DNA of 64,000 bases, from contig VGOO01000001.1 of assembly GCA_016875925.1 (NCBI GenBank), positions 2,162 to 66,161 of the forward strand. The letters are read 5' to 3'. The notes under the pieces were generated by a model. It saw nothing but the letters and a program-made list of their open reading frames with translations, was not told the origin of the DNA and ran no database searches. The position numbers and the translations under genes were made by a program. Positions within the stretch are counted from its first letter, which is position 1; each line of letters opens with the position of its first letter. This DNA comes from Chloroflexota bacterium (lineage in GTDB: Bacteria > Chloroflexota > Dehalococcoidia > GIF9 > UBA5629). Shown in pieces: positions 24,848-43,640 of this stretch.

Positions 24848-24967
24848 CCCCCGGCGGTGGCATATTTTCCCAGAGAGCTGCCTCCCCAGTATCGTCTGCG
24901 CTGAGGCATTTCACTTCCGTGTTCGGGATGGGAACGGGTGGTACTACCTCGCTCTAACCACCAGAGG
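24848..24967 (-). rRNA. rrf: 5S ribosomal RNA, stand-alone copy
   Basis: Minus strand reads CCUCUGGUGGUUAGAGCGAGGUAGUACCACCCGUUCCCAUCCCGAACACGGAAGUGAAAUGCCUCAGCGCAGACGAUACUGGGG...CCACCGCCGGGGG. The universal CCGAAC...GAAGUGAAA loop-C/helix-III core is present and the 5' and 3' ends pair (helix I). A T-run follows the 3' end. Confidence 0.92.
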
Positions 24968-35957: not shown

Positions 35958-37283
35958 ATGAGCCCAAATAATTCTTCCATACTAAGCATATTTCCATTTA
36001 ACACGAAGGTGAATAGCCAAGGCCACCTCGTTATAGGCGGTTGCGATGCCACTGCTCTCGCCCAGGAATTTGGCACTCCGCTTTATGTTCTAGACGAATT
36101 CACTATTCGCACCAAGTGCCAAGAGTTCCGATTCGAGTTTAGCAAAAGATACCCCGATATTTTGGTCATATATGCGGCCAAGGCTTTCATAAATCCAAGC
36201 TTGGCTAACATTATCAAACAAGAAGGGCTGGGAATGGATGTTGTTTCAGGTGGCGAGCTAAGCATTGCCCAATCCGCGGCTTTTCCGCCAGAGAAGGTTT
36301 ACTTCCACGGGAACAACAAGACAGCAAGTGAGCTAAAGCTTGCCTTGAATTGGGGTATCGGACGAGTAGTGGTCGACAATCTATTCGAGTTGGACCTACT
36401 TAACAAAATGGCACAAGAGACGAATAAGAAACAAGATATCCTATTACGCATTAACCCAGGAGTCGATCCGCACACCCATCGTTTCACAACCACCGGCATA
36501 CTCGATAGCAAGTTCGGCTTGCCTTTGACCACCGGCCAGGCTGAAGCAGCGATAATCCGTGCCTCTTCAGCATCCCATCTTAGCCTTCTGGGGCTGCATT
36601 TCCACCTGGGCTCACCCATCTCTGAGATTAATCCCTATCAAGTAGCTATCGAATTAGCGTTGAAATTTGCCCAAAAAATGAAGGCGAAACACGGCTTTGA
36701 CCTAAGGGAACTCAGCCCAGGCGGTGGTTTTGCCGTACAATACACACCGCGCCCAAAAATACCTAGCGTTAGCGACTACGCAGATGCGATAGTTTCAAAG
36801 CTCAAGTACGTCAGCGACAAGCTCAACTTAGCACATCCGCGATGTACCATAGAACCGGGAAGAGGAGTATTAGCCCAAGCAGGTGTCGCATTATACAGCA
36901 TCGGCTCAATTAAGAAAATCCCGAAGGTGCGCACTTATGCTGCAGTTGACGGTGGTATCGGAGATAATATCCGCCCAGCACTCTACCAAGCAAAATATGA
37001 AGCGATAGTTGCCAATAAGGCGAACCAAGAAATGACAACCAAGGTGACAATTGCTGGAAGATACTGCGAGTCAGGAGATATCCTGGTTAAAGACGTGGTT
37101 TTGCCTCCACTGTCACCAGGTGACATTATAGCTATCCCCGCCAGTGGTGCCTATTCCATACCAATGTCTAGTAACTACAATGCTGTCCCCAGACCTGCTA
37201 TCGTAATGGTCAAAGATGGTGAGCCACGCCTGGTAAGAAGGCGCGAAAGCTATCAGGATCTCATAAGTTTGGACATAAATTGA
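35958..37283 (+). CDS. lysA: Diaminopimelate decarboxylase
   Basis: 441 aa. Fold-III PLP decarboxylase motifs YAAKAF, HFHLGS, EPGR and GRYCESGD. Confidence 0.93.
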   Translation: MSPNNSSILSIFPFNTKVNSQGHLVIGGCDATALAQEFGTPLYVLDEFTIRTKCQEFRFEFSKRYPDILVIYAAKAFINPSLANIIKQEGLGMDVVSGGELSIAQSAAFPPEKVYFHGNNKTASELKLALNWGIGRVVVDNLFELDLLNKMAQETNKKQDILLRINPGVDPHTHRFTTTGILDSKFGLPLTTGQAEAAIIRASSASHLSLLGLHFHLGSPISEINPYQVAIELALKFAQKMKAKHGFDLRELSPGGGFAVQYTPRPKIPSVSDYADAIVSKLKYVSDKLNLAHPRCTIEPGRGVLAQAGVALYSIGSIKKIPKVRTYAAVDGGIGDNIRPALYQAKYEAIVANKANQEMTTKVTIAGRYCESGDILVKDVVLPPLSPGDIIAIPASGAYSIPMSSNYNAVPRPAIVMVKDGEPRLVRRRESYQDLISLDIN

Positions 37284-38296
37284 AAGGTATTATGTGGAAA
37301 ACAATCGGTCAGACCAAAGCCATTACCCTGATTGAAGGTAGCATAAAGACAGATAGCTTAGCCCATGCCTATTTGCTAGTTGGACCTGAACACATAGGCA
37401 AAACTACCTTGGCACTTGACCTGGCACGAGCTTTAAACTGCCAAGGAGACAAGAAGCCATGTAACCAGTGCCAGTCCTGTACAAAAATCAGCAACGGCAA
37501 GCACGCTGATATTATGATATTGAGCTTGGATTCGCCTGACATTCCCGAAGATGATAAGGAGCGCACGAAAATAGGAATCAAAAAAATACATTACCTACAG
37601 AATAGTGCCAGTTTGCCACCATACGAAGGTAAGTTCAAAACATTCATCATCGATGGCACCGAATACTTATCGAATGAAGCAGCTAACTGCTTGCTCAAGA
37701 CATTGGAAGAACCGCCGCCAAGAGTGCTTATACTTTTGTTAGCATCCGATGAATCACAGCTCTTGCCCACAGTTGTTTCCCGTTGCCAGAGACTGGAATT
37801 AACGCCAGTCTCATCCACAGACATAGAAGAGATGCTCTTGCATTCCGTCAGTATTGACAAAGAGAAGGCGAAGCTTCTGTCCAGATTATCAGGGGGTCGC
37901 CCAGGATGGGCTATCGACGCTACCACCGATAATAACTACCTTGCGGAACGTGCTGAAAAGCTTGACCAAATATCATCATTGCTTGGTGAAGATTGGGGAC
38001 AACGCTTACTCTACATTTCACAGCTCCGACCTGACAGGAAATCTGCTGAGGAACAAATACGATTCTGGCTAGATTGGTGGCGCGACTTGATGCTAACTAA
38101 GTGTGGCTGCCAACAAGCCATTACAAACATAGACCAAGCATCAATACTTGAGAGATGGACACATGTATTAAGCTTGGTTGAGATCAAGGACTTTATACGC
38201 AGTCTGGAGAAATCATTAGTCCAGATCGCCATGAATGCCAACCCGCGCCTGATGCTCGAATGCCTCATGCTCGATATGCCTATCAAGCCTTCATAG
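37280..38296 (+). CDS. holB: DNA polymerase III subunit delta'
   Basis: HAYLLVGPEHIGKTTLA, zinc module C..C..C and EEPP. Start is either the TTG at 37280 (TTGA overlap with lysA) or the ATG at 37292. Confidence 0.88.
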   Translation: MKGIMWKTIGQTKAITLIEGSIKTDSLAHAYLLVGPEHIGKTTLALDLARALNCQGDKKPCNQCQSCTKISNGKHADIMILSLDSPDIPEDDKERTKIGIKKIHYLQNSASLPPYEGKFKTFIIDGTEYLSNEAANCLLKTLEEPPPRVLILLLASDESQLLPTVVSRCQRLELTPVSSTDIEEMLLHSVSIDKEKAKLLSRLSGGRPGWAIDATTDNNYLAERAEKLDQISSLLGEDWGQRLLYISQLRPDRKSAEEQIRFWLDWWRDLMLTKCGCQQAITNIDQASILERWTHVLSLVEIKDFIRSLEKSLVQIAMNANPRLMLECLMLDMPIKPS

Positions 38297-38342: not shown

Positions 38343-39176
38343 ATGCCAGAAATAGTTGGAGTTCGCTTTCAGCAAGCCGGCAAGGTGTATTACTTCGATG
38401 CTGCCGATATCCCTATGGAGATAGGCGACCGCATCGTTGTCGAAACCAACCATGGCCGAGAATTAGGTAGAGTGGTTATAGCCCCTAAACAGATGCTAGC
38501 AAGCGATATCACAGAACCTCTGAAACCGGTGGCAGGTAAAGCAACCCCCGCAGACATGCAGCGTGCCCAACATAACCAAGAAAAAGCACATAAAGCATTG
38601 AGACAATGCCGCGAGTCAATCAATAAACTCAACCTTCCCATGAAACCCATATCAGCCCAATACAACCTAGAGGGAAATCACCTCACCATTTTTTTCACCG
38701 CAGAAAAGAGGGTTGACTTCCGCGAACTTGTTAAAGAGTTAAGCCATAACTTGAGAACACGCGTCGAGCTGAGACAGGTCGGCACCAGAGACGAAGCCAA
38801 ACTGATCGGCGGCTTAGGCAAATGTGGTTACCCATTGTGTTGCACATCCTTCCTGTGTGAATTTACCCCCGTCTCCATAAAAATGGCCAAGGAACAAGAG
38901 GTAGCACTCAACCCCATGAAAACATCAGGAGTTTGTGGTAGACTCCTTTGCTGCCTGGGCTACGAAGTCGAGCAATATCGAGCCATGAAGGAAAAACTGC
39001 CAGCGTTAGGCCAAGAGGTATCAACATCGCTGGGAAAAGCAAAGGTCGTTGGACTGAATCCCTTGAAAGAAGCAATATCCGTAGAACTAGACTCAGGAGG
39101 CACTATGGAACTAGCTGCCTCGCAAATAAACTGGCAGAAGAAACCGCCGCCAGAGAAACAAGAGCCCAAAGGCTAG
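38343..39176 (+). CDS. ricT: PSP1-domain protein (YaaT/RicT-like)
   Basis: VGVRFQQAGKVYYFD......GD.IVVET..G.ELG.V, a cysteine-rich CC..FL..F and GRLLCCL. Conserved position after holB. Confidence 0.85.
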   Translation: MPEIVGVRFQQAGKVYYFDAADIPMEIGDRIVVETNHGRELGRVVIAPKQMLASDITEPLKPVAGKATPADMQRAQHNQEKAHKALRQCRESINKLNLPMKPISAQYNLEGNHLTIFFTAEKRVDFRELVKELSHNLRTRVELRQVGTRDEAKLIGGLGKCGYPLCCTSFLCEFTPVSIKMAKEQEVALNPMKTSGVCGRLLCCLGYEVEQYRAMKEKLPALGQEVSTSLGKAKVVGLNPLKEAISVELDSGGTMELAASQINWQKKPPPEKQEPKG

Positions 39177-39683
39177 CTACTGATGCACATACTTCTGCCA
39201 TGTAGTATAAGTGCAAAGGTAGTGATAGGGAACATAGAAACCATCGTCCCTCGGGGCTCTCGGACGCGATAACAACGGCATCCTAGCTTCAGCAGGTGTG
39301 CGCCCAGCCTTCCGCCTATTACAAGGAACACAGGCACTGACCACATTCTCCCAATTATGCTGGCCACCTCTCCTGCGAGGAACAACATGATCTAGAGTAA
39401 GTTCGCGTGTCTCGCGTCCACAGTACTGGCAAGTATGACCATCGCGATGAAAAACCTCGTGCTTTGTCAGCTTCCGTTGTCGTCGTGGTCGCCTGACATA
39501 ATATGCAAGCCGAATCACAGAGGGAACATCGAATATGCTTTCAACTGAATGGATATTACCTCGACCATTTTCCAAGACCTCAGCCCTGCCATGAAGCAAC
39601 AGAACAACTGCGCGCCGCACTCTGCAAATATTAAGCGGCTCGTAGTTTTGATTAACCACCAAGACCGGAGAATTGACTATCAT
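39177..39683 (-). CDS. HNH endonuclease
   Basis: C.YCG....LT.DHV.P...GG...WEN.V.AC..CN..K is the HNH motif with zinc-binding cysteines. Confidence 0.88.
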   Translation of the reverse strand: MIVNSPVLVVNQNYEPLNICRVRRAVVLLLHGRAEVLENGRGNIHSVESIFDVPSVIRLAYYVRRPRRQRKLTKHEVFHRDGHTCQYCGRETRELTLDHVVPRRRGGQHNWENVVSACVPCNRRKAGRTPAEARMPLLSRPRAPRDDGFYVPYHYLCTYTTWQKYVHQ

Positions 39684-39739: not shown

Positions 39740-41158
39740 CTAAGGAGACGAACGACGCCTGGTCGGACTTTGCGACAATTTTGCGCGCCTAGCTGCTCCT
39801 CTATCGCCTCTGTAATCAGGCGCCATGATATTGAATACCAAACTAATACTGGGGTCCACCATCCTCGAGCTGATTCGATTCTCTATCTCGTCTAGCGAAA
39901 AGCAAGTAGTAATCACCGTGGCCAGCCTAGCATTATAACGATAGTTAATTAATTGATACAGCTTCTCCTGTGCCCAGGGAGTGGCAGATTGCTCGCCGAA
40001 ATCATCCAGAACCAGCACCTGAACTTGCTTAATCCGCTCAAAAAGCTCGTCATACGAAGTCTTGCTGTCCGGGCCGAATGTGGAACGGAGATGATCCAAT
40101 AAATCAGGCACCACGATAAAAAGAACAGGCTTACCTTCCTGCTTAAGATGATTGGCGATGGCAGCCGCCAGGTGAGTTTTCCCACAGCCGTTAGTACCTT
40201 GAAAAACAAGCCAGCCTTGAGGAGACCGAGCAAAATCAAGCGCCAGATGATAAGCCTGCTCCAAATTCTGCCGTTCTTCCGGCATAAGGTTCAATCGCCT
40301 GTAATCAAAATTTTTAAATGTCATCCTCCGTAGTAACTCCAGGTCTAGCCCACCAAGGTGAGATAAAGAAGACAAAATACTGCCAAGCATATACACTCTG
40401 CAAAACCCCACGTCTGTCAGATGTCCTCTAAGACTATCGCCAAAACCCTCTATTGGTACATCCGCAGTAATCACAGTAGCCAAACGAGCATTGAAACGAT
40501 AATCTAGCAATTGCTCCATCTTTCCCTTCGCCCAGCCAGTAGTCGTCGCCATATTCAGATCATCCAGAATTAGGATGGGAGTATTCTTAACTTGTTCAAA
40601 TAGCGCATCGTGGGTGATATTACTGTCGGGACTGAAAGCAGAGCGGAGATAGTCTAGCAAATCAGCAGCATTGATATAAAAAACAGGGCGTCCCAAGCCC
40701 AAGCAATGGTTAGCTATAGCACAAACTAAATGGGTCTTACCACTTCCTCCAGGTCCAATAAATACTAGCCAGCCGCTGGGGGCTTCGGCAAAGGCTTTAG
40801 CAGCATCATAGGCCTGACTGAAAAGTTCCTGCAAAGCAGGAGCACCTTGCAGCCCGGTTGGAGTCAGGTTCTCAAATGTCAAACGAGACAGGATGCCAAG
40901 ATTGCTCCTTTGCTGAAGCTGGTTGAGCTTCTCGCTTTTAAGCTCCTGCCGCCGGCATTTGCACGGTACCACGCGGCTAAAATCAGTTTTCCCTGACGGC
41001 AGAACAGGGTAAACTAAACCAGCCCCCTTGCACAGTAGACAGGCAGTAGTAGCCGAGTCTTCAGCCTGGTGCTCAGCGTCTGACCATGTGCCCGTATCTG
41101 CCCCTGACATATTTGGCAGAGTTGTTTTCTTTTTCAGAATCTCGCCTAGACTTTCCAT
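39740..41158 (-). CDS. Helicase-loader-like protein with N-terminal zinc module and two tandem DnaC/DnaI-type AAA+ modules
   Basis: CLLCKGAG...CKC, then module 1 (WLVFIGPGGSGKTHLVCAIANH, ILILDD, FNARLATVIT) and module 2 (WLVFQGTNGCGKTHLAAAIANH, VLVLDD, YNARLATVIT). Start favoured at the ATG at 41158 (GAGGG SD); the ATG at 41203 is also possible. Confidence 0.85.
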   Translation of the reverse strand: MESLGEILKKKTTLPNMSGADTGTWSDAEHQAEDSATTACLLCKGAGLVYPVLPSGKTDFSRVVPCKCRRQELKSEKLNQLQQRSNLGILSRLTFENLTPTGLQGAPALQELFSQAYDAAKAFAEAPSGWLVFIGPGGSGKTHLVCAIANHCLGLGRPVFYINAADLLDYLRSAFSPDSNITHDALFEQVKNTPILILDDLNMATTTGWAKGKMEQLLDYRFNARLATVITADVPIEGFGDSLRGHLTDVGFCRVYMLGSILSSLSHLGGLDLELLRRMTFKNFDYRRLNLMPEERQNLEQAYHLALDFARSPQGWLVFQGTNGCGKTHLAAAIANHLKQEGKPVLFIVVPDLLDHLRSTFGPDSKTSYDELFERIKQVQVLVLDDFGEQSATPWAQEKLYQLINYRYNARLATVITTCFSLDEIENRISSRMVDPSISLVFNIMAPDYRGDRGAARRAKLSQSPTRRRSSP

Positions 41159-41795
41159 CGAACTTACCCTCAGTGGCCCAACGCTCCAGAATGCGCGCAA
41201 CATACTTCCAGCTACGCTTATTAAGCCTGACTGCTTCCCGAAAGGCGCTCTCTATCCAATCATGCGGATACAGCTTCTCAGCCTCTCTCAATTCTTCAAC
41301 AATCATAGGTGTTAGTATGCCGATATTCTGCTCGTAAAGAATAAAAATGTTAGGTGGCGTAAAAGCATCACCAGCCTTCACTTTCCTAACTACGAAGTCG
41401 GACGATGGCATCTCGCCTCTTTCGACCTTAGCAACGATGTTCCTTTCAGTCTCCGCGTTTATCAAATAGATATCCTCATGCTCGCCATCTTGTTGTATCT
41501 CTAAATGAAGCAAGATTCCATGCTCAACGGCCAAGGTTAAGGCATGTTTAAGCACCTCTTCTCTTTGTTCAATACCCCTGGCTATTCCGTTCATAAGAAC
41601 AGAGTCAGCCAAAAGTTCCTCACTGGCTACAAAACGTGGGTAGCCGCGCCGGCGGCTTAACAACCACAGAATATGCAGCACTGTTTTCAACTCAGCAATA
41701 TCCTCAATGTTTGGCAGCACCATAGTAAAAAATTGATTAGGCACAGGAGTTACTTCAGCTTTTTCTACGAAGCCCATGAATGGTTTATCATACAT
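41073..41795 (-). CDS. DnaD-domain replication protein (DnaD/DnaB_2 family)
   Basis: LYEQNIG.LTP.I.EEL.EAEK.YP.DWI..AF.EAV..NKRSWKY...ILERW is the DnaD C-terminal domain signature. Sits between dnaB and the loader gene. Confidence 0.8.
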   Translation of the reverse strand: MYDKPFMGFVEKAEVTPVPNQFFTMVLPNIEDIAELKTVLHILWLLSRRRGYPRFVASEELLADSVLMNGIARGIEQREEVLKHALTLAVEHGILLHLEIQQDGEHEDIYLINAETERNIVAKVERGEMPSSDFVVRKVKAGDAFTPPNIFILYEQNIGILTPMIVEELREAEKLYPHDWIESAFREAVRLNKRSWKYVARILERWATEGKFDGKSRRDSEKENNSAKYVRGRYGHMVRR

Positions 41796-41818: not shown

Positions 41819-43210
41819 TCAGGCAGCGCTTACCTCGACTTCCAAATCTTCAAATTTGGTAATCGAAGAGACGAATCTCAATTTGCGCTCACCAGTAGGG
41901 CCATTCCTATGCTTGGCAATGATAATGTCAGCAATACCACGAGGATAGGGATTAGATTCAATATCATAGTTCTTTCTCCAGTCTTCCTCACGGATATACA
42001 TCTCATCTCGAGAGATAAAGATAACCACATCAGCATCTTGTTCAATGCTGCCACTGTCTCTTAGGTCAGATAACATAGGCTTGTGCGACATACGTTGTTC
42101 TACAGCGCGGCTCAACTGTGATAGTGCGATTACTGGCGCATTTATCTCGCGGGACAGCGCTTTCAAAGAACGTGTAATCTCGCTTAGCTCCTGAACCCGG
42201 TTATCCCTTCTCGACTCATCACGAATCAACTGAATATAGTCAACAACAATCAGATCAATAGGATGTTCAAAATGAAGTCGCTTTGCCTTGCCATGCATCT
42301 CCGCCATTCTCAATTGAGGTGAATCATCAATAAAAATACGTGCGTCAGCGAGTGCACCGCTAGCATCCATTACTTTTCTCTCTTCCGGTTCTGCATACTG
42401 GCCCAAACGGAGCTTGCCACAATCCACGCCGGATTCGCTAGCCAACAAGCGTCTCGCTATATCCTGCCGAGACATCTCCAAGCTAAATATAGCCACACAT
42501 GCTTTCTGATTTATAGCCGCGTTCCTGGCAATATTAAGGGCAAGGCTGGTTTTGCCTGAACTAGGTCTTGCACCGAGAATAATTAAGTCAGAGCGCTGTA
42601 AGCCTCCCAACAAATCATCTATTGCCGCAAAATTGGTGAGTATATGTGGTATCCTCTGCTCTTCCCTAGCAGGCAGCCCCGTGTCCTCAAAATATTCACC
42701 CAACACTTCTTTGAGAGAGACAAAGTAGCGCGGGCTTTGCTTGCGTAGAACTGCAAACAGAACGTCCTCTGCCCTAATTATCGCGTCATCAACATCAGAA
42801 TCAGCTCTATAGCCTATGGCCGCAATCTCCCCGGCAGCTTTTATCAACTGGCGCATCACATCGAGTCTCGATACGATGCGAGCATAGTATTCGATGTGCA
42901 AAGAAGTAGGTACAGAGGCGACCAGATGGCTCAGGTAGGCAGCTCCGCCAACATCCTCTAACTTATTCTGCTGCGCTAACTCACGGGCCACCGTTATCTG
43001 GTTTATCGCCTCAGGACGTTGGTACAACTTGAGGCAAACATCGTAGACCCACCGATGCTCCGGAATAAAAAAGGCCTCAGGTTTCAGAGAAGATGCGACT
43101 TTGAATATGGCATCACCGTCAACAAGGAGCGAACCTAGTACAGCCTTCTCCGCATCAACATCATGAGGCGGCAAGTTATCGCTATTCATTCTCGGTCCCT
43201 TCTTCGACAA
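41819..43210 (-). CDS. dnaB: Replicative DNA helicase DnaB
   Basis: [38 protein letters not shown] and ALSQLSR. Start may be the ATG at 43189. Confidence 0.96.
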
Positions 43211-43640
43211 TCACCTTGACCCTTGCTTCCAAGCCAGGCGCCAAACTAACAGTCACTTCGTGGCTGCCCAACTCATGTAACGGTTGGCCTAGATTGACCT
43301 TTTTTCTGTCTATTTCGAAATCCACAAGCTTAGAGAGTTGAGCCGCAATAATAGCACTGGTGATAGAGCCATGTAGACGCCCTTTAGCACCCGCCCGAGC
43401 CTTGAAATGCAATTCCCCCCCATCCAAACGCTGAATCACTTCGCGCAAGGCCTCTTGCTCACGTACATGACGCTCCGCCCTCTCTTGAGACGCTGTTTGG
43501 GCCGCTTTAATGGCTGGTGGCGATGCCGGCAACGCCAACCCCCGAGGAAATAAAAAATTACGGGCATAGCCATCTGCCACCTCTCGTATCTCACCACGCT
43601 TACCCTTTGAGGAAACATCTTCTAAAAAAACAACCTTCAT
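43182..43640 (-). CDS. rplI: 50S ribosomal protein L9
   Basis: MKVVFLEDV...[24 protein letters not shown]. The rplI-dnaB arrangement is conserved. Confidence 0.95.

Follow-up and report, generated by a model that had tools for sequence, protein, structure and literature searches.

We analysed a 64,000-nucleotide (nt) stretch of DNA from a Chloroflexota bacterium of the class Dehalococcoidia (assembly GCA_016875925.1, contig VGOO01000001.1, positions 2,162 to 66,161), referred to here in its full length as the window, and found in it a minus-strand gene for a helicase loader with two AAA+ modules in one polypeptide. Judged by sequence, this tandem loader breaks the one-module rule of the DnaC/DnaI family, and the architecture is abundant in databases and found across Chloroflexota. 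To our knowledge, the bacterial AAA+ helicase loaders studied to date all have a single module and need to form oligomers on DnaB.

Two paralogous modules of the DnaC/DnaI family

The first-pass annotation of the window had described a loader with two complete, full-length modules and had quoted a Cys-rich element together with Walker A, Walker B and repeat motifs. All of these motifs are present in the minus-strand translation of 39740..41203, which contains CLLCKGAG...CKC, the Walker A sequences GPGGSGKTHLVCAIANH and GTNGCGKTHLAAAIANH, the pair DLLDYLRSAF and DLLDHLRSTF, the Walker B sequences ILILDD and VLVLDD, and the pair FNARLATVIT and YNARLATVIT. The common module start had been given as (L/M)TF(E/K)NF, which fails for the first module (module A), since this begins LTFENL. 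Self-alignment bore out the paralogy of the two modules: A and B are 44% identical over 171 amino acids (aa) with no gaps (E 6e-53).

Profile searches with hidden Markov models (HMMs), which had been suggested with IstB_IS21 and DnaI_N as the expected families, agreed with the first of these and gave no significant match to the second. Pfam IstB_IS21 (PF01695) matched two stretches of the loader with 108.4 bits (cutoff 24.1), and NCBIfam PRK08116 also matched two stretches, with 204.3 bits (cutoff 189). The equivalog models PRK07952 for DnaC (130.7 versus a cutoff of 357) and PRK08939 for DnaI (113.7 versus 228) remained below their cutoffs, and no Pfam or NCBIfam model matched the loader over its full length. 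Its sequence matches in the PDB were DnaC and DnaI, and the solved loaders found there were all single-module chains of 174-317 aa. On these comparisons the loader is a member of the DnaC/DnaI family (initiator-clade AAA+) but an equivalog of neither E. coli DnaC nor B. subtilis DnaI.

An AlphaFold2 monomer model was built on 83 homologues, with a mean predicted local distance difference test score (pLDDT) of 79.7. It contains two equal five-stranded alpha/beta modules (strands 130-257 and 316-444), preceded by a disordered leader and a small Cys-containing domain. Foldseek searches with the modules taken separately returned 3ecc with a template modelling score (TM) of 0.79 and a root-mean-square deviation (rmsd) of 2.9 Å, followed by 5he8 (TM 0.73), 2w58 (0.71) and 6qem (0.64). 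The isolated AAA+ domains (3ecc, 2w58 and 5he8) gave TM 0.69-0.79 at an rmsd of about 3 Å, and E. coli DnaC chains gave TM 0.61-0.64. We rejected a kinship with p97/Cdc48/NVL, the top matches of the whole-chain search, as a trivial effect of the presence of two modules (TM 0.26-0.38, rmsd 11-20 Å). Type II classical-clade AAA+ proteins (p97/Cdc48, NSF, NVL) do have two modules per chain, but they belong to another AAA+ clade; p97-type proteins stack two hexameric rings, whereas the modules of the window protein lack full lid domains and carry DnaC-type residues for binding single-stranded DNA (ssDNA).

Gene start and organisation of the protein

The extent of 39740-41203 previously given for the gene, without its strand, is that of the maximal open reading frame (ORF), 39740..41203 on the minus strand, which encodes 487 aa. 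The true start is M16 of this ORF. Alignment of homologues showed that the conserved N-terminus MESLGEILKKK begins at this residue, and we therefore placed the start of the loader at 41158, giving 472 aa. The start codon is the ATG at 41158-41156, and 8 nt upstream of it lies GAGGG, a Shine-Dalgarno-like motif; some databases place the start at M32, for a protein of 456 aa (P0001). Residue numbers below refer to the 472-aa loader, which is organised as follows.

39740..41158, minus strand: tandem-AAA+ helicase loader gene, 472 aa and stop codon (coordinates verified by translation)
41048..41158, minus strand: N-terminal leader, aa 1-37, predicted disordered (pLDDT <50 for residues 1-36 in the AlphaFold2 model)
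40904..41047, minus strand: 4-Cys domain followed by a helix (C40-x2-C43-x-G-x-G ... C66-x-C68)
40382..40903, minus strand: AAA+ module A, aa 86-259 (from self-alignment, motif frequencies and the predicted five-stranded alpha/beta fold, E130-E257)
40346..40381, minus strand: inter-module linker, aa 260-271, SILSSLSHLGGL, the least conserved stretch inside the protein (0.53)
39791..40345, minus strand: AAA+ module B, aa 272-456 (from self-alignment, PDB matches and motif tables; predicted fold E316-E444)
39740..39790, minus strand: basic C-terminal tail RRAKLSQSPTRRRSSP and stop codon (poor conservation, 0.49; pLDDT <50)

The leader is poorly conserved outside MESLGEILKK and (T)DTW, with a mean pairwise identity of 0.35 over its aligned part (aa 17-37). 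Among 83 sequences, C66 and C68 of the 4-Cys domain never vary and the conservation of C40 and C43 is at least 90%; all four are invariant in a 20-sequence N-terminal set. We regard this as a putative zinc-binding and helicase-binding domain. A profile search of the domain against the PDB and Pfam found no significant similarity to DnaI_N or to any PDB chain (best E 0.28); UvrA, DnaJ and the DM domain gave sub-threshold matches of the CxxCxGxG type (E >=0.28). The linker, which differs in length by 2 residues among 120 homologues, repeats an S(N/H)LG motif that also precedes module A.

The fusion is not an artefact of assembly

A frameshift or an assembly join had been considered possible between the modules, at about 40330-40400. 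The loader sequence is present in eight lake-water metagenome runs, four of which were examined. In all four, contigs cover 39828-41250 with zero differing letters, indels or joints. One contig spans this whole interval in three of the runs; in the low-depth run (X8) it is divided among three contigs with a 5-nt gap at 40576-40580, one of them covering 40063-40575. The suspected position thus lies inside a single contig in each of the four independent runs, and no frameshift or join was found there.

The chance that two adjacent genes were artificially fused by a sequencing frameshift or an assembly join is, in our judgement, negligible. Metagenome assemblies in general run the risk of collapsing or joining repeats, which can be raised in its favour, and we found no specific support for it. 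Because the modules share only 44% protein identity, they are too divergent for mis-assembly, which rules out collapse or joining by the assembler. In addition to the contigs that cross the junction, the uninterrupted architecture occurs in hundreds of independent assemblies, at identities down to 37% and on contigs of 0.3-3.3 Mb. The two-module fusion is genuine and conserved.

In all four runs the Logan contigs were broken into short alternative pieces at 39798-39857, where the word depth was raised. Most of this interval is the end of module B, at about aa 435-454 with the sensor II motif, and the rest belongs to the C-terminal tail. It lies away from the module junction, and the breaks point to strain micro-diversity or a short repeat.

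The tandem architecture is widespread in Chloroflexota

We surveyed the distribution of the architecture in sequence databases and found it widespread in metagenome-assembled genomes (MAGs) of Dehalococcoidia and Anaerolineae, in line with the proposal that it be sought across Chloroflexota. Two Walker A motifs were present in 119 of the 120 closest protein clusters (61-87% identity, 427-497 aa), and the tandem architecture was found in more than 200 independent clusters (37-87% identity, 420-497 aa). A search with a 39%-identical relative added about 120 further clusters of 420-476 aa. All 33 strong genome matches were Dehalococcoidia or Chloroflexota MAGs, and the named matches of the loader were MAGs throughout.

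An exhaustive search of 1.84 billion representatives returned 616 proteins at E<1e-30, and the best 150 of these (clusters at 50% identity) were classified with module-specific HMMs. About 56 of the best 150 had the order N-terminus, module A, module B, as in the window protein, and about 58, from Anaerolineae MAGs, were tandem proteins in which the first module resembles a canonical module B. About 17 appeared to be single-module proteins composed of the N-terminus and module B; some of these about 17 may be fragments, and 16 were of full-length size (255-300 aa). Two longer proteins were also observed, P0122 (792 aa) with three DnaC-like modules (Walker A at 131, 318 and 506) and P0121 (827 aa) with four (Walker A at 104, 303, 496 and 688). 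Each is a singleton cluster, and they could be real expansions or assembly artefacts.

Tandem loaders carry generic database names ('ATP-binding protein', 'AAA family ATPase', 'DNA replication protein DnaC'). The first-pass annotation had named an already described, common family among the outcomes that would refute it: the architecture is indeed common in databases, but full-text literature searches found no paper describing a tandem DnaC/DnaI loader and no structural or biochemical study of one, and neither Pfam nor NCBIfam has a model that spans the window protein. Excerpts of Brezellec et al. 2016 (PMC5109545) infer a single domestication of dna[CI] in Chloroflexi, and the table there gives every Chloroflexi genome one dna[CI] and no dciA. 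In these excerpts and those of the supplement, the Chloroflexi dna[CI] genes are listed without comment on architecture or duplication.

The two modules are asymmetric

In E. coli DnaC, roles have been established for K112 (Walker A), E170 (Walker B), N203 (sensor I), R216 (Arg-coupler), R220 (Arg-finger), R237 (sensor II) and an ssDNA-binding tetrad, K143/F146/S177/Y179 (PMC8213410). We mapped these roles onto both modules of the loader with a phmmer alignment to 6QEL and the internal alignment of the modules, with the following result.

Walker A: module A, G135-T142 (K141); module B, G321-T328 (K327)
Walker B: module A, D199 D200; module B, D385 D386, then F-G-E-Q, which is invariant
ssDNA tetrad: module A, R172 F175 T207 W209; module B, R358 F361 T393 W395
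Sensor I position: module A, D233; module B, C419
Arg-coupler position: module A, S242; module B, R428
Arg-finger position: module A, H246, with R244 two residues before it (box VII S242-L-R244-G-H246); module B, R432
Sensor II: module A, absent; module B, R450

Among 120 close homologues, both modules conserve their Walker and tetrad residues to at least 97%. In module B, R428 and R432 are invariant, R450 is present in 117 of the 120 and Cys occupies the sensor I position in 116. In module A, His at the finger position and Asp at the sensor I position are each found in 104 of the 120. We infer that R428 and R432 correspond to E. coli R216 and R220 from two features, the RxxxR spacing and how far the pair lies from the DYR sensor II motif; here the ungapped phmmer alignment is shifted by four residues. 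Module A is the faster-evolving of the two, with a mean pairwise identity of 0.70 versus 0.79 for module B. The description of the modules as complete thus holds in so far as there are two paralogous AAA+ modules, but not for module A, which has no sensor II Arg and has His at the Arg-finger position. By these residues, module A is a partly degenerate partner that has lost trans-acting and lid elements.

In a wider set of Dehalococcoidia proteins, the first module has the finger Arg in 37 of 49 and still lacks sensor II and the sensor I Asn. The Anaerolineae type has a canonical first module (sensor I Asn in 42 of 45, RxxxR in 44 of 45, sensor II Arg in 42 of 45) and a degenerate second module, so that its polarity is reversed relative to the window protein. 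In all classes, both modules retain the tetrad, the Walker A Lys and the first Asp of Walker B. We compared one shared duplication with separate duplications in Dehalococcoidia and Anaerolineae by a four-point test on corrected distances; the quartets divided 33/30/37%, giving no signal, and the class-mean module identities are dominated by rate differences.

The loader gene lies in a replication operon

The dnaB gene lies two genes upstream of the loader on the same strand. The cluster rplI-dnaB-dnaD-like-loader that had been reported is present in the window, and the same order was found in all 31 related Dehalococcoidia loci that are complete on that side; in these 31 loci the dnaB orthologues at the same position are 53-92% identical. 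Most related loci continue with an HNH endonuclease gene and then PSP1, holB and lysA on the other strand, which matches the window. In Anaerolineae, one contig of 3.3 Mb carries dnaB followed directly by a DnaD-domain gene and then a tandem loader gene. The neighbouring genes of the window loader are as follows.

43182..43640, minus strand: rplI (ribosomal protein L9), the first gene of the cluster (orthologue with Pfam Ribosomal_L9_N and Ribosomal_L9_C)
41819..43210, minus strand: dnaB, replicative helicase, maximal ORF 463 aa (Pfam DnaB and DnaB_C on orthologues)
41073..41795, minus strand: DnaD-domain protein gene, 240 aa (Pfam DnaB_2, 2.5e-9; TIGR01446 DnaD_dom, 1.3e-11)
39177-39683, minus strand: HNH endonuclease gene, 168 aa, directly downstream of the loader (Pfam HNH, 3.9e-14)
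38343-39176, plus strand, opposite the loader operon: PSP1/YaaT-like gene, after holB
37280-38296, plus strand, opposite the loader operon: holB (DNA polymerase III delta')

Because the dnaB synteny holds in 31 of 31 Dehalococcoidia loci and in Anaerolineae, the gene is most likely the chromosomal replicative-helicase loader of this Dehalococcoidia bacterium. The single dna[CI] gene and the lack of dciA in the Chloroflexi genomes of the excerpted table of Brezellec et al. 2016 also speak for this role. This agrees with the earlier proposal of a chromosomal loader rather than an accessory gene of a phage or insertion sequence, and no IstA transposase or phage gene was found among the loader's neighbours. 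We consider it very improbable that the protein is a mobile-element helper ATPase of the IS21 IstB type or a prophage replication protein, even though IstB_IS21 is its best Pfam match, an HNH endonuclease gene lies directly downstream and a phage origin followed by domestication is assumed for DnaC/DnaI genes (PMC5109545). Neither an IstA transposase nor a phage gene lies nearby, and the genes around the loader are rplI, dnaB, holB, lysA and rpoB; the synteny is kept across lineages 50-87% identical and across two classes, and the NCBIfam model IS21_help_AAA (NF038214) scores 133.8 versus a cutoff of 200.

The 3' end of the DnaD-domain gene overlaps the loader gene by 86 nt (41073-41158) in a different reading frame. 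Related Dehalococcoidia loci (L001-L032, L035) in which both gene ends could be aligned also have an overlap, of about 70-86 nt; the loci that share it are 43-85% identical, with both protein ends aligning. In the Anaerolineae locus (L036) the overlap is just 4 nt. The conserved overlap suggests translational coupling of the two genes, and the DnaD-domain partner itself suggests a Firmicute-like loading pathway.

In most related loci the HNH gene, at 53-94% identity, keeps its place beside the loader; such conservation is unusual for HNH genes of replication operons. The pairing of holB with the PSP1/YaaT-like gene is also conserved in related loci, and we take it to resemble the holB-yaaT arrangement of Firmicutes. 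Elsewhere in the 64-kb window there is a lone 5S rRNA gene (24849-24965, minus strand; Rfam 89.7 bits), and no 23S rRNA, 16S rRNA or tRNA genes were found within it.

A proposed trimeric assembly and the evidence from a single-module orthologue

The first-pass annotation had argued that a covalent dimer would change the stoichiometry and symmetry of the loader-helicase complex. The modules are covalently joined and their residues are asymmetric; the consequence itself is plausible. We slightly favour a model in which three asymmetric pseudo-heterodimers would give six AAA+ positions per DnaB hexamer, with alternating ATP sites. Modules A and B would both bind ATP and line the ssDNA-facing side of the loader spiral, and three chains would fill the six AAA+ positions that six DnaC protomers occupy on the DnaB hexamer, with three N-terminal domains alone contacting DnaB. 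One ATP site would be completed by the module B Arg-finger and the next would face the degenerate box VII of module A, leaving every second interface alone fully catalytic. Module B would then be the main motor, while module A, partly inactivated and carried in the same chain, would meet some of the cost of oligomerisation in advance. In AAA+ proteins the C-terminus of a module adjoins its own ATP site, and for this reason we suspect that R432 of module B may be donated into the ATP site of module A within one chain. The ATP site between chains might then face His246/R244 of module A. Both of these assignments are speculative.

A related Dehalococcoidia lineage has a single-module orthologue at the same locus. 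This protein, P0279 (278 aa; a cluster of 44 members on contigs of up to 532 kb), is encoded at L035 6001-6837, and its neighbourhood is identical to that of the window loader: rplI, dnaB, an overlapping DnaD-domain gene, the loader, HNH, PSP1, holB and lysA. In P0279 the N-terminal Cys domain runs straight into a pure module B, with the junction at the S-N-L-G motif. This module shares 84% identity with module B of the tandem protein P0092 and 70% with window module B; for comparison, window module B has a median identity of 76% to its own family. Because P0279 nests inside the tandem family by pairwise identity, a measure of similarity and not a tree, module A was most likely lost secondarily in this lineage.

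Several observations weigh against the trimeric model. In the P0279 lineage, module B alone apparently does the loader job. It follows that module A would not be needed to fill positions in the spiral, and an assembly of six copies fits this equally well or better. Among solved loader complexes there would be no precedent for three N-terminal domains serving six DnaB sites. The sensor I Asn is missing from both window modules (D233 and C419), and its loss abolishes the ATPase activity of E. coli DnaC (PMC8213410). Because this Asn, essential for the E. coli ATPase, is absent from both modules, overall ATP turnover may be weak. The finger His of module A is specific to the window's subfamily, since the 37 of 49 wider first modules mentioned above keep Arg. 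Finally, the orientation of the modules relative to each other is uncertain in the AlphaFold2 model, which has a predicted TM score (pTM) of 0.51, although the modules themselves are confident.

The alternative is that six copies bind through six N-terminal domains, with module B alone forming the spiral and module A being a peripheral accessory or regulatory element. Module A could in this case mimic a neighbouring protomer and so auto-inhibit or prime module B, or serve as a dock for the DnaD-domain protein or DnaA. That a related lineage has P0279, composed of the N-terminus and module B, at this locus favours such an arrangement, as do the faster evolution of module A, its lack of an Arg-finger and sensor II, and the finding that the solved loader-helicase complexes among the PDB matches are all made of single-module chains. 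However, the Walker A Lys/Thr and Walker B Asp of module A are invariant, and its tetrad residues R172, F175, T207 and W209 are each at least 97% conserved, which is hard to explain if the module never faces ssDNA. The same conservation of both modules is seen in the Anaerolineae type. We regard the six-copy arrangement as the main alternative but the less likely one, and continue with the trimer of pseudo-heterodimers as our working model.

Comparison with known loaders

PRK08116-type single-module loaders, including P0279, have the 4-Cys domain, module B and the rplI-dnaB-dnaD-like-loader-HNH operon in common with the window; relative to P0279, the window protein has an extra, partly degenerate module A between the N-terminal domain and module B. 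The Anaerolineae tandem loaders (P0131, P0492) are like the window protein in having an N-terminal Cys domain and two DnaC-like modules in about 440-450 aa, and they share the dnaB-DnaD-domain-loader operon, but their polarity of degeneration is opposite.

E. coli DnaC (6QEL/6QEM) and Aquifex aeolicus DnaC (3ECC) share the initiator-clade fold, Walker A and Walker B with the window loader. The E. coli DnaC tetrad K143/F146/S177/Y179 is R/F/T/W in both window modules, and the DnaC Arg-coupler, Arg-finger and sensor II have probable counterparts in module B. Unlike DnaC, the window loader has two modules per chain, an Asp-Asp Walker B and no sensor I Asn, and its N-terminus is a 4-Cys domain, whereas that of DnaC is a helical hairpin. 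The DnaI proteins of Bacillus, Geobacillus and Staphylococcus (4M4W, 2W58, 5HE8) resemble the window protein in combining an AAA+ module with a Cys-containing N-terminal domain. DnaI works with the DnaD and DnaB co-loaders, and the window loader gene is partnered with a DnaD-domain gene. The window loader differs from DnaI in being tandem and in having an N-terminal domain without detectable similarity to DnaI_N.

Significance

How many of the six loader ATP sites must fire, and how asymmetry arises, are open mechanistic questions. A hard-wired, phylum-wide two-module loader with one module partly inactivated is a natural experiment on the number of ATP sites and on asymmetry. The tandem arrangement fixes one type of interface covalently and predicts an unusual 3:6 stoichiometry with just three helicase-binding domains. 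Natural controls are provided by the single-module orthologue at the same locus and by the Anaerolineae loaders, whose polarity is opposite. The 'one dna[CI] gene' per Chloroflexi genome of previous surveys may conceal a different architecture, which automatic names hide.

More broadly, and as a tentative proposal that we consider possible rather than probable, Chloroflexota may have exchanged the homo-hexameric loader for a covalent pseudo-heterodimer that acts as a trimer with DnaB (3:6) and has alternating catalytic and degenerate sites, with evolution of opposite polarity in Dehalococcoidia and Anaerolineae and with natural single-module revertants. If this is true, the covalent pseudo-heterodimer would give bacteria an equivalent of the asymmetry that is built into ORC-Cdc6 or clamp loaders.

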